The notes beneath the pieces were generated by a model, which was given only the letters and a program-made list of their open reading frames with translations, did not search any database and was not told where the DNA came from. This document shows, in pieces, positions 17,859 through 26,126 of a stretch of 64,000 nt of DNA. A program made the translations under genes and the position numbers. Numbering within the stretch: the first letter of the stretch is position 1; each line of letters opens with the position of its first letter. The DNA comes from Euprymna scolopes (lineage: Eukaryota): assembly GCA_053919585.1 (NCBI GenBank), contig CM132805.1; one strand, given 5' to 3'.

Positions 17859-17910
17859 ATGAAAAGGAAATTCGTAGCCATTTTGATGATGTTTGTCTTC
17901 TTTTCGATGA
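17859..17910 (+). CDS. Cys-rich peptide gene copy B, exon 1 (signal peptide MKRKFVAILMMFVFFSM)
   Basis: ATG...TCGATGA|gtaagt, 52 nt, phase 1 matching exon 2. Basic N-region followed by a hydrophobic core. Confidence 0.82.
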
Positions 17911-19052
17911 GTAAGTAAAAATTGATTGAAGTTTTCATATTTTATTTTCTAAGCAAAAATTAAAATATCTTATTTAATTTATTTGAATCAGTAGGAAACG
18001 ATATTTGACCAGCTTCATTCTTTGTTTAAATTGGTTTCTTCGCTTATTTCTTCGGATGAACTATTTCCAGGATGAAGATAGGATATATATTGAATCAATT
18101 TGGAAGATTTGACCGACTTGATTCTTGATTGGGTCTTCTTGACCCTGATACTTGCAAGAGGAATACTGTTTTAAGGTAACCAAACTGAAAATAAAGTTTA
18201 ACTTGAAATTGCATCCTATGCTAAGTAGAACCAACTTCCTAAAAAACATAGCCATCTAGAGATAGAGTATCTCCATCTAAAAGATGCTGAGAAAGTGATG
18301 CTCCACACATGAAAATATGTTGGACATTCAGCAGACCAATTAATTGAGGAATAGATTATTCCGACTGTCGATGGAATATGAACTTTAGGACGATCGGATA
18401 TCTCTTTTCTGTGACAATGCCAAAGATGGCTATTACTTTTCAAACAAGAAGAAAACACAAACAACATTTGCATGTAGCCAAGTAATTACTTTCTTACGGG
18501 TTGCTGCATGGACGTCCGCTAAGGATAGCTGAATACAGGATCCCCGAGTACCAAAAAAGTTCTTGAAATTTTCAAAGTCTGACTCCAATATAAGACGTTT
18601 CCTATGCTATTATTAATTTGTATGTCTACTGTGTTAGAAGCATCTCACTAAATACAATCACGAGTTGATAAACTTGATAGGAAAAGTATACAAAAAGAAA
18701 TAGCAAAAGGAATAACTATTACAGAAACGCCCACTGCTGATGGAGTGCATTTACTTTCTAAGCTTTCTTAAGGTAAACAAAACAACTTATTTTTCCGGTG
18801 TTATATTTCCAGGATTCTCTATATAAAAATCTGTTACCTGAAATAATGTTTTGGCTTATATTCTGCGGGTGGCAAATTTAGGACACGTTTGATTAATGAA
18901 AAGTGAATTGAGAAATAACTGATGTCAGTTTCTCGTTTAATTTTTTACTGCATCATCAAGATGTGATCAATCACAAAGTTTGTTTGAAGTTGAATATTTG
19001 TAAACACGTAAATGTCGATCCCCTTTTTATTCAATGTTTTTTATTAACCTTT

Positions 19053-19922
19053 ACACAGTGAAGCGATAAATTTTCGCCCTAAAGGAAACAACACTACAGC
19101 TTTATTTTAAAACTTTTATTGAAAAAGATCAATTCAGGTAACTTGTTTATGTCGTAGAGCTGACATTTATTCAATGTAGCCGCTTTCAGCCTCAATCATT
19201 GCCCGGAACTGCGAACATGCGCTTTCCATAAGCGCCGGCAGGAGCTCGGCGAATACATGAAGGATGGTGGCGATCGGGTTATTTGGTGTTATAGGATGTC
19301 ATGTTGGTGATGTTCTCGACGTATGACCAGGTCGGGGGAGTAGAGGGCCGATAAAAGAAGGATACAAAATCGTACCACCCCTTCTGAAGTCAAGCTTGGG
19401 TCCCTTTGGACTTGTGGGCCGCCGCCGAATCCTACTGCAACACTCAGAGTCTGCCAGCGGCCACCTTATTGCATCGGAAGATCACTACACTCTGCAGCAC
19501 ATTCAGATATACTTTGGTGTTGACTTTAAAACCGATTTCGAAAATGTGAGGTGGCGTGATGTGACCTTCACTTGAAAACACACCAAAGCCATAATCATGA
19601 CCGGAAATTTTGTTTTCATCATTCTGGGCACGTCAATGTTATTCATGGCAATCCAGCGATGCATTTTGAGACAGCTAGCAATGGTCTTGTTATAACTTTG
19701 ATCTGTAGAGCGCATGAATTGTACAGCGCAGCGGCGCATCTACGATCTCGCTCGTTGAATATTATGTCACTTTCAGGCGTAATACAAGGCTCCTATCGCT
19801 CGTGTACACAACTAGCCAACTATTAGATGATCTGCAACAAAAAACAAGAAAGCCAGTTTCCATTAAACGGAAATGGAATCATTCGCCATTTAAGAGCGAC
19901 AATTTTATCGTTCCACTCTGTA
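19053..19922 (-). mobile_element. Internally deleted DD37D maT-like mariner, copy B
   Basis: Both TIR-like ends present (right end gcgacaattttatcgttccactctg-ta). Degenerate transposase C-terminal half. Confidence 0.85.
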
Positions 19923-21081
19923 CTTATTAGTTACTTTATAACAAACAACAGCATATTTCTTTGGTGAATTTAACTGATTATTTGACATATTATCATGCGA
20001 CAATTGATGAAATACAGCATTTCCTTAATATTCAGAAACATAATGCTGTTCACAAAGAAGCAGAATAATTCTCGTGTGTTTATATAGCAAAGGTTTATGG
20101 CACTGGCTAGTTATTTTGTTTTATTTTATCCATTTTTTACCCTTAAATGGTTAGGAAGTCAAAAGTACCCACTATTATCGGGTATCTNNNNNNNNNNNNN
20201 NNNNNNNNNNNNNNNNNNNNNNNNNNNNNNNNNNNNNNNNNNNNNNNNNNNNNNNNNNNNNNNNNNNNNNNNNNNNNNNNNNNNNNNNNNNNNNNNNNNN
20301 NNNNNNNNNNNNNNNNNNNNNNNNNNNNNNNNNNNNNNNNNNNNNNNNCATATCTTATTTTTCTTTTATTAATATTACTGGAATTTTTTCCTTTTTTCCT
20401 TGTACACATTTTTGGAAATTTTTCCATGGACTTCTGCCTTTGGATTATTATGGACCATTTTGTTCCAATTACGGGATTTTTGGATTTTACTTGTGCAAAT
20501 GGAAATTCAATTAACTTTCTTGAAGTTATATACTTGGATTTTACCGTCACTGGATTATTTATCTTCCACCAGACTATCCATTCATGTGTAATCACCTTTT
20601 TCTTCACTATATTCCCTCTGCGTCACTTTTTTTGTTTTCAAGTAAGATCTTTGACTTACTCGTTGTTTCATCAAATACTTTTGCATGCAAAATCCGATCC
20701 CGCATTTTGCTAATTCCTACCCTCTGATGAGAAGGAAAGTATTTCTTCGAAACTCCGCGGATTAAGGACTATCCACTTATCTAGTGTTTCCTTTTCAGAT
20801 TAAATATGTTTTTAACTCATTTCAAAGTGTTTTTAACATGTTTNNNNNNNNNNNNNNNNNNNNNNNNNNNNNNNNNNNNNNNNNNNNNNNNNNNNNNNNN
20901 NNNNNNNNNNNNNNNNNNNNNNNNNNNNNNNNNNNNNNNNNNNNNNNNNNNNNNNNNNNNNNNNNNNNNNNNNNNNNNNNNNNNNNNNNNNNNNNNNNNN
21001 NNNNNNNNNNNNNNNNNNNNNNNNNNNNNNNNNNNNCTGAATTTTACTGGGTTTGTAAATTTAGTAAATTTTCATTTACCA

Positions 21082-23891: not shown

Positions 23892-24315
23892 GCCCCTTCA
23901 ACGATTCGTAAATAACAGCTGCTGTCTTAATCTTAAAGCCTACTTAAACCATTATATTATTGATGTATAAACTGTGAAAATATTTTTCTAATAATGTCTA
24001 GGAATTTATAAAAGACTATGTGTAGAGTAAAAGTAATAGTATTTTATCCTATTTCCCCTACAATCAAATTCTATAATGATAGGCATAATGGATAACAATG
24101 TAAACAAGGAAATAAGTTAACTTGAATCCAAATATAATCGCATAAAAAGTAGAAGCTGCTGTTCAAGAATAGTTGTGTAAAAAAAAGTATTCAATTTCAT
24201 AATTGAAGAACATAAGTTTGATATGCTGTAAAACTAAATAACTTACCATCCTCTATAATATAAATCTCACCTGTCTGTTTAAATCTGTGTATGTATGTAT
24301 GTATGTATGTATGTA

Positions 24316-24594
24316 CAGGGTGGCCGAAAAGTCCCAGGACACTATACATGTATTTTTAATAAAACACAGTATTTTTTAATGAAACACACAGAAAACATAT
24401 ATATTCAACAAAAAAAGAAAACTTTATTAGAAACAAAGCAGAAAACAACTAGAGTAATTTAGTGGTCTAGGGGATCAGTATGTTGGCCCTCGTTGTTCTT
24501 GCACAATTCCATCATATTTAACAGCATTAAAATATTAAAAATAGAGTGTCCTGGGACTTTTCGGCCAGTGTCCTGGGACTTTTCGGCCATCCTG
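24316..24594. mobile_element. Tc1/mariner-type MITE
   Basis: TIR cagggtggccgaaaagtcccaggacact at both ends (partly duplicated on the right), TA flanks, inserted in a (TATG)n run. Confidence 0.9.
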
Positions 24595-26058
24595 TATGTA
24601 TGTATGTATGTATGTATGTATGTATGTATGTATGTATGTATGTATGTATGTATGTGAGATAAGCCAAAAATTAAAATCCGATGAAAAATCCTGATAGATA
24701 TTACTAGAGGTAATACTTTCAGGGTGATCCTAGCCAAAAAGGAACAGCTCAATATTTAAGAATAGAGCAATATATAAATTTAGTTGTTAAATTTAAATTT
24801 TAAAAATCAAAATATAGACACATATATTCGAGTTAAGAATTTATTGTTTGACAAACGGAATATATAGAAGGGGTTATATTAATTTCCTTAATCCATGGAT
24901 TTTCAATAATGGCTCATCAGAGGAAATGAAATGCGGTTAGCAAAATGTTCAGCTGTGAAAAGGCACGTATTTTGCTTTTCAGCACAATTATTGAAAATAG
25001 TTTTTTTTTGGTGGTGAATGATAATTATATGAAAATAATTATTGGAAGAGGGAATTTGATACAACCTGGGAAGTCCATTATCGAAAGGAGTATAATGTCC
25101 TCCGGGGTTTTATTTCCAAGGAGGCAGAATATTGGTCCAGGGGAGAAGGCAGTAATCCCATATAACAAAAATGCGTGGTTGCTCCTTATTGATATTTAGG
25201 AAGGTATACGGGGCGGCCGTATTCGTTGGTGTGTTGAATGCGTTTTGGTATATGTAATCCAGATTCTTTTTTGGAGTTGGCACAGTATATCAGATATTGG
25301 ATGGATATACCAATCCATTGCATATATTCCCATGGGTGATGGTCGGTAATGAGGATGCAAGGACACGAGTTCTAAAAAGAAAACAAGCACGGAAAATATA
25401 GAAGTTATTTATAGGGAAAAATAATAAGACTTATTGCGCGCCAAATTAAGATACCAAACTCATTCACACATATCACGTGATCACGTATATCGCATGAAGG
25501 TACATATGGCGTAGTGATTATCACGAGATTGGGGTGAAGGTCAGCAGTTTTTTTCACAACCTCTTTTAAGTGTACTATTTTCAGTTGACCTTTATACACT
25601 GGAATAAATATATTTTTGATCTTCAAATTTAATGATCGTTTTGTTTTTTTAGTTTAAAATTAAATTTGAACTTCCGATGTTATATTTTATTATCAGTTTT
25701 TTTTTCGAGCTGGGGATGGGACATCCTACCAGATGCCAAACATTCACCTGATAACGCAGCTATTCCAACCGAGAGATATTTTAAGATTCTGACTGTCACT
25801 TTAAATGTAATTGCTTAAATCTCTCTTGCACTTGGTTCACCAGGTATATTTGCCAGATAGTTTTCGAAATTCTTTTTTATGAATTCCATTATAATATGAG
25901 TCCCTATAGTAACTGGAATGGTAGAGATATTTGTACGATTCCTGTTTCTTTTCATGTCAGACATAAGACCTTAGTATTTCGTTATATTTTCCCTTTCAGC
26001 TCTTTTTAACCAAACATCATTGGAGACACTAACTTCTGAATGTTGCATTTCGTTTCAG

Positions 26059-26126
26059 ATATTATTTGCTGTAAATATGGAAGATGCTTCATCGGAGATT
26101 GTATGGCAATGTGGCCACTTTCATAG
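26059..26126 (+). CDS. Cys-rich peptide gene copy B, exon 4 (68 nt, (H)IICCKYGRCFIGDCMAMWPLS*)
   Basis: cactaac branch site, tttcgtttcag acceptor, ends TAG|gtatg. Colinear with 10495-10562. Confidence 0.85.

Follow-up and report, generated by a model that had tools for sequence, protein, structure and literature searches.

Loss of an exon from a WAP-derived gene of Euprymna scolopes leaves a transcribed frame for a predicted four-cysteine mini-peptide

What becomes of a cysteine-rich peptide gene when one of its exons is lost? The question is raised by a stretch of 64,000 nucleotides (nt) from contig CM132805.1 of Euprymna scolopes (assembly GCA_053919585.1), here called the window, whose numbering is used for all coordinates unless G000:C23 is given. 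The window holds copies of a small multi-exon gene, and in one of them, copy B, exon 3 is missing and exon 2 joins exon 4 in frame, giving the cysteine pattern CC-x4-C-x4-C. An earlier reading of the letters alone (the sequence-only reading) had proposed that the deletion created a new disulfide scaffold with alpha-conotoxin spacing or, alternatively, that copy B is a damaged gene. Our analysis confirmed that the feature is real and transcribed and that its origin is clear.

The coding exons of copy B lie on the plus strand exactly where the sequence-only reading had placed them, with canonical AG/GT ends, and their in-frame splice yields the 47 residues it had given. Exon 1 (17813–17910) comprises the 5' leader and the signal-peptide codons; its coding part (17859–17910, 52 nt) ends in a canonical donor, and a TATA box stands at 17769–17774, at the same place as in the paralogs. 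Exon 2 (22868–22891, 24 nt, phase 1-1) encodes the predicted end of the signal peptide and, given the putative cleavage site, the first mature residues. Exon 4 (26059–26126, 68 nt to the stop) carries CC-x4-C-x4-C, corresponding to cysteines C5–C8 of a WAP domain, followed by a 7-residue tail, the stop codon and, immediately after it, a donor. The non-coding exon 5 (28531–28640, end approximate), which had been overlooked, forms the 3' untranslated region (UTR), contains AATAAA at 28615–28620 and is covered by RNA contigs. A 31-bp tandem repeat (26119–26401, 9.1 copies) duplicates the stop and the exon-4 donor, and the length of the RNA contig implies that the first of these donors is used. 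Both N stretches of copy B lie within intron 1, while the interval 22892–26058 contains no N. The bare CC-x4-C-x4-C motif is in itself no rarity, with nine matches in six frames over 664 kb; it is credible here because the exon carrying it is spliced.

The loss of exon 3 was confirmed by several approaches. Neither blastn nor tblastn detected an exon-3 homolog in 22892–26058, nor did a search for open exons of symmetric phase or a profile of paralog exons, and a genome-wide search with exon 3 of copy A matched copies A and C only. A hidden or diverged exon 3 within this intron was rejected on the strength of these scans. Across the gene cluster, a profile search of 664 kb identified 20 exon-4 loci over ~520 kb (none in a further 190 kb of flank), of which 18 have an exon-3 homolog; the exceptions are copy B and one fragment with exons 4 and 5 alone, leaving copy B as the sole complete copy without exon 3. 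In its place lies a high-copy transposon-like element (24248–25342, plus strand) with a nested short inverted-repeat element and its right end missing. The element ends at 25342, where three sampled copies continue, and homology to intron 3 starts at 25339, so that the right breakpoint of the deletion (25339–25342) is a 4-base microhomology common to the element and the intron. For the element part 24660–25340, the 39 best long matches elsewhere are 89–94% identical, and the three sampled copies are ~92% alike among themselves. Since the breakpoint is a microhomology with a truncated transposon, the deletion is recent, with an estimated age of up to about 0.04 substitutions per site; in introns, the branch parting copy B from A and C measures 0.086 substitutions per site. 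Either the element was inserted first and end-joining followed, or it was captured at a break; both courses would account for this arrangement.

RNA evidence was obtained by a search with the exon-5 stretch, which yielded 24 runs. Five of these contained 0.32–0.43 of its words and none reached half, a share that corresponds to the portion of the query stretch occupied by exon 5; 13 runs with a share of 0.07–0.18 were left unused, and five of the 24 runs were examined, excluding X16 (0.36) and X17 (0.32). Contigs were aligned to 17700–26130 in four runs, and to copy A at 80% likeness in four runs. In X1, a poly(A) RNA library, a contig joins 22891 to 26059 with GT..AG ends at a word depth of 70.2, the letters between being marked as not known. 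In X14, a single 345-nt contig (depth 62.6) consists of 17813–17910, exon 2 in full (24 letters, of which one differs silently) and exon 4, and thereby reads exons 1-2-4 directly. The in-frame joint between phase-symmetric exons that had been deduced from the genome is thus seen in RNA, including the junction that had been named as a check. The X15 contig (depth 23.5) covers exon 1 and exon 4, with the exon 2–4 joint absent from the rows listed. The exon 4–exon 5 joint occurs in the contigs of X1, X14 and X15, which belong to three studies, so that spliced copy B RNA is present in three of the five runs examined under three study codes, and the transcripts on which the sequence-only reading had made its proposal depend exist. 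An intronless retrocopy as the source of these contigs was rejected: a genome search with exon 4 matched over the exon only at copies A, B and C.

Regarding depth, copy B (62.6) exceeds the intact copy A (14.7) in X14, the only run in which the exon 3–4 joint of copy A was seen (14.7), and in X1 copy B is the sole family contig on exon 5 at 80% likeness. The RNA contigs differ by ~2% from the assembly, and the species of the runs may or may not be that of the assembly. At 26095, each of the three runs has A in place of G, which changes Gly to Glu in loop 2. X14 additionally shows A to G at 17868, which changes a signal-peptide residue and represents either an allele or A-to-I editing, a process common in coleoids. 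Together with the silent change in exon 2, these differences leave the cysteines and the frame untouched.

Where, then, does the cysteine pattern come from? The WAP/WFDC domain has eight cysteines, four disulfides and 40–50 residues, as described in PMC11408880. The Pfam WAP model (PF00095) reached three of ten single-exon stretches, all from basal genes of the cluster and with both halves of the model, as weak matches (E 0.013–0.053) that fall short of its cut-off; exon 4 of copy B gave no Pfam WAP match. With a profile built from the genome's own WAP domains and 200 shuffles per gene, the four basal genes scored 11–20 bits (0/200 shuffles as high for each), copy A and the D and U groups 6–8 bits (0–3/200), and spliced copy B –1.0 bits (111/200). 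A profile of exon 3 matched a six-WAP protein at E 9.8e-5 among 1.84 billion representatives searched. The basal genes show a cysteine spacing of 12/14-5-5-0-3-3, with exon 4 reading CC-x3-C-x3-C. Judging from these comparisons, the family represents a WAP domain that lacks C2 and has a phase-1 intron between C4 and C5, and the CC-x4-C-x4-C of copy B is the inherited C5–C8 half. Loss of exactly half the domain was possible because this intron splits it. Elsewhere in the genome (L093–L097 on contigs C12, C13 and C36), there are five ordinary WAP matches, each with 8 cysteines and contained in a single open frame, in contrast to the family of copy B, which has 6 or 7 cysteines, lacks C2 and is interrupted by an intron inside the domain.

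The even number of cysteines can be traced in a similar way. The codon at the C7 position of copy B is TGC (26085–26087), opposite AGC in copy A as the sequence-only reading had noted; the position is occupied by Cys in copy B and in the four basal paralogs, by Ser in copy A, by Asn in copy C and by Pro in the D group. Accordingly, the basal genes have 7 cysteines, copy A and the D and U groups 6, and copy B 4. In the tree, copy B stands beside (A,C), nested in the 6-cysteine groups, with the 7-cysteine genes basal; the node joining U to (A,B,C) has 74% support, and the exon-4 block alone pairs A with B. The ancestral codon was analyzed under six rate settings, with the U genes set as unknown since their exon 4 cannot separate C7 from C8. 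For the A/B/C ancestor, the first codon base was T (Cys kept) with 0.56–0.85 and A (Cys regained in B) with 0.12–0.37. Copy B was thus most likely a 7-cysteine gene whose extra cysteine was kept, and probably being so before the deletion, its even count of four follows from 7 minus 3. Less probably, the cysteine was regained once exon 3 had gone, as a compensatory change. These values and the Cys of the basal paralogs favor the earlier suggestion that the additional cysteine is the ancestral WAP C7.

The same origin explains a resemblance to toxins. Like the alpha4/4-conotoxins BuIA, PIB and RoIA (framework I, A-superfamily), copy B would be a short secreted molluscan peptide with CC-x4-C-x4-C spacing. 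For alpha-conotoxins, PMC4052327 describes spacing classes including 4/4, a two-exon A-superfamily gene with the intron in the pro-region, and a loop-1 proline/hydrophobic patch. Alpha-conotoxins are also marked by an A-superfamily signal peptide, a mature length of 12–20 residues, globular or ribbon disulfides and antagonism of nicotinic receptors; the predicted cut would leave copy B with 24 residues. Copy B has four exons, three of them coding and one UTR, lacks a pro-region, bears no proline in its two loops and ends in a longer C-terminal tail of 7 residues. Given the lack of homology, the WAP origin and a host other than a cone snail, copy B is not an alpha-conotoxin on present comparisons, and kinship with these toxins is not supported. 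Sequence searches of the PDB gave chance-level matches only, at a scope that excluded chains <20 residues and hence most alpha-conotoxins.

Copy B is no longer a WAP domain either: compared with WAP/WFDC (PF00095), it retains four cysteines (C5–C8 only) and lacks the inhibitory loop as well as a Pfam match. It is like the single-domain WAP peptides in its predicted secretion and in the descent of exon 4 from a C5–C8 half. Such single-domain peptides include elafin, snake waprins and crustacean single-WAP crustins. If the putative cut site is right, its N-terminus would read His-His-His and recall histidine-rich defense peptides with an N-terminal XXH (ATCUN) site such as piscidins; these are linear cationic helices, whereas copy B is cysteine-rich and nearly neutral. 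The XXH motif in defense peptides is treated in PMC8208971. A further likeness concerns the possibly lineage-specific peptides of coleoid salivary glands (PMC4280546, citing Ruder et al. 2013), which are also short, secreted and without known family; the likeness is one of description.

In our assessment, there is about an even chance that copy B is a live WAP-derived gene for a new two-disulfide secreted mini-peptide, likely serving defense. The phase-1 intron between C4 and C5 makes exon 3 a symmetric cassette, which was removed, presumably by end-joining after or with insertion of the transposon, and messenger RNA (mRNA) is made from exons 1-2-4-5. The signal peptide would be cut after the PG-x-x-small site of the family, leaving ~24 residues that start with His-His-His; the third histidine would be created by the new exon 2–4 junction and may complete an XXH copper site. 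In the WAP fold, C5–C8 bond to C3, C1, C2 and C4, respectively, a connectivity for which we found no citation. Because C5–C8 bond only to C1–C4, the four cysteines, having lost their old partners, would pair mutually in two new internal disulfides, and whatever fold results must be a new one. A role in host defense against microbes, rather than protease inhibition or conotoxin action, would be the weakest step and is our best guess from WFDC biology and the behavior of the family, in which the signal exon is conserved, the cysteine loops vary and genes undergo birth-and-death turnover. WFDC proteins act as antiproteases or antibacterials, and the antiprotease action is set by the C1–C3 spacing (PMC11408880); the corresponding protease-binding loop is encoded by exon 3 and thus missing from copy B. 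A more specific version, in which the deletion marks the datable birth of a self-standing two-disulfide scaffold with its His-His-His start, its own expression pattern and possibly a regained cysteine, is possible but we hold it only tentatively.

Several observations weigh against a live defense gene. Copy B no longer has the start codon of the family; a new ATG stands in frame two codons upstream, and there are further upstream ATGs, one in frame at –51 and another out of frame at –23. Decay is frequent in the cluster, where eight of the 20 exon-4 loci lie in broken or partial copies. The RNA runs were chosen for containing copy B, and expression is poorly gauged by word depth; in X14 the D-type contigs are much deeper (877.5), in X15 they reach 38.1, and in X1 they were not placed. 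Raw-read runs gave no exon signal of copy B in X21 (12% read; nothing on exon 1) and X19 (4% read; no more than a single read on exon 5). The predicted net charge is +1, or 0 with the Gly-to-Glu allele of all three runs, and counts against a simple cationic antimicrobial mechanism. Single-exon searches for an orthologue returned no match up to E 10, being weak owing to short queries with intron letters. Between exon 4 of copy B and that of copy A there are 9 replacement changes (0.175) and a single silent one (0.087), with introns at 0.085–0.121. That none of them hits a common cysteine speaks for a live gene; the replacement excess, however, is not significant (P 0.08–0.16) and is also compatible with relaxed selection. 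Also in favor of a live gene, copy B has preserved its frame, its splice sites, the poly(A) signal and all four cysteines despite 0.086 intron substitutions per site, but simulated neutral survival of the frame, splice sites and four cysteines amounted to 0.69, 0.47, 0.22, 0.10 and 0.04 at 0.01, 0.02, 0.04, 0.06 and 0.086 substitutions per site. A live gene and a young relic are therefore inseparable by sequence alone.

Much of this is what would be expected of a transcribed relic, in which the promoter and splice sites still work, skipping is forced and keeps the frame only because the exon phases happen to allow it, and a useless or degraded product results. This is a serious alternative, though we place it clearly short of even. 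The youth of the deletion (neutral survival 0.22–0.47), the altered start, the repeat duplicating the donor and the many decaying neighbors all speak for it, and an even cysteine count arising as 7 minus 3 needs no selection. Against it stand the complete mRNA recovered from three studies, which is deeper than that of intact copy A in X14 and alone in X1, and alleles that disrupt nothing; the RNA modestly tips the balance towards a live gene. The damaged gene of the sequence-only reading is weakened to that extent, though after so young a deletion a gene under no selection could still appear intact. Of its new disulfide scaffold, the exon loss, the in-frame skipping and the transcription stand; kinship with alpha-conotoxins is not supported, the pattern being inherited from WAP.

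Other explanations appear far less probable. A venom or salivary peptide convergent on the alpha4/4-conotoxin frame, blocking nicotinic receptors or another channel of prey, would fit a spacing of the 4/4 class (PMC4052327), the native ribbon 4/4 forms described in PMC12178101, the salivary-gland peptides of coleoids reported in PMC4280546 and the fast change of exon 4; we consider it improbable in view of the missing loop proline and pro-region, the tail, the three coding exons and a spacing inherited from WAP. Similarly improbable is that copy B cannot fold alone and that its cysteines bond other chains, itself or secreted matrix, or that its histidines or thiols bind metal. All WAP partners of its four cysteines are lost, the four intact basal paralogs with their odd cysteine count offer a possible unpaired C7 partner, and three N-terminal histidines would be present if the predicted cut is correct (XXH motif, PMC8208971), but the cleavage site behind them is itself a prediction. 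Lastly, exon 3 might seem absent through misassembly, or might be absent from the sequenced individual alone, which would suit a repeat-rich region and DNA from one animal; this is highly improbable, as transcripts ~2% off the assembly also lack exon 3 and the breakpoint bears a biological signature.

The surroundings of copy B document the turnover of the cluster. The changes at its start codon and the extra ATGs stem from a local duplication in the leader (17808–17867). A second, decayed promoter and exon 1 without ATG lie upstream (16855–17214, plus strand) and are 87% like those of copy C and 66% like copy B's own; the working promoter may come from another duplication. The signal exon of copy B is of the cluster's own type, and a genome-wide search with exon 1 gave 16 matches, all of them inside the cluster. 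Copy A (2703–11435, plus strand) is an intact 6-cysteine paralog with exon 2 at 2703–2729, exon 3 at 9000–9080, exon 4 at 10495–10562 and exon 5 from 11330; its exon 1 falls outside the window, 1.9 kb ahead of the start. Its intron 2 contains a 1.5-kb insertion (6524–8043) flanked by 79-bp direct repeats 94% alike, which looks like a retroelement remnant. Copy C (46715–52837, plus strand) is broken: exon 1 is at 46715–46757, no exon 2 was found in this copy, an exon-3 remnant without acceptor is at 52758–52837, and a frameshifted exon 4 lies past the window end. A 41-bp satellite of ~30.7 kb (54362–64000 in the window and on to about 85111) has grown from intron-3 sequence inside copy C. Between copies B and C, 34584–40843 holds a 4.5-kb array of 19-bp units between related, older 28-bp arrays; the 28-bp array is found again at 14049–14525.

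Beyond the window, the four intact basal paralogs (G000:C23:11024821-11163106, L085 to L061) have 7 cysteines, without C2 and with C7 kept; one was modelled without its cysteine-free exon 2, which was located later. The free thiol of these secreted peptides suggests dimers or cross-linking. The D array (G000:C23:11460000-11542000, L048-L065, minus strand) consists of six ~14.6-kb units, ~98% identical, with five complete 6-cysteine genes and near-identical exons, and provides the deepest family contigs in X14; it looks like a dosage amplification. In the U group (G000:C23:11200000-11296000), exon 4 is shortened (CC-x3-C) and exon 2 carries a Met-Asp repeat; one gene is complete and the rest are broken or partial. 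Altogether, 12 of the 20 loci have a complete open frame. The genome at large (5.9 Gb, at least 46 large contigs) is that of a mollusc: it gave 53 matches to the molluscan hemocyanin domain, with an eight-unit hemocyanin as the best match of solved structure (entry 6r83, a squid hemocyanin), so that a crustacean host with a crustin, the first idea, was rejected. Together with a haploid number of 46, which many decapodiform cephalopods have (PMC13218726), this points to a squid or cuttlefish.

Relatives outside this genome were sought as well. A further single-exon search, with a short query containing intron letters, gave no usable orthologue match, and the three matches of the exon-3 profile at E ≤0.001 were a repeat artefact, the six-WAP protein and a fibronectin-type protein, with no orthologue among them. 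Our literature searches turned up no account of this cluster or of an exon-deleted WAP half, although supplements or subscription papers on coleoid salivary glands may list such peptides. The term WAP is absent from the main text of a cuttlefish genome paper (PMC13218726) and of a cuttlefish hemocyte peptide paper, and the large toxin family treated in bioRxiv 10.64898/2026.04.09.716377 is different from this cluster.

The origin of new disulfide frameworks is usually inferred from end products. Here, the parent forms with 7 and 6 cysteines, the intron that made the loss possible, the breakpoint and the spliced product are found together in one cluster, and a peptide of 24 residues would be easy to seek and assay. 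Motif-based toxin annotation calls for caution, as a fragment of a WAP domain can display a conotoxin-like cysteine pattern. With 12 open-frame genes, for which the protein databases searched gave no relative, the cluster is a candidate cephalopod family of defense or gland peptides. If the more specific version that we hold tentatively is true, 7-, 6- and 4-cysteine stages would coexist in one undescribed cephalopod peptide cluster, and the alpha-conotoxin cysteine frame would have been reached outside cone snails.

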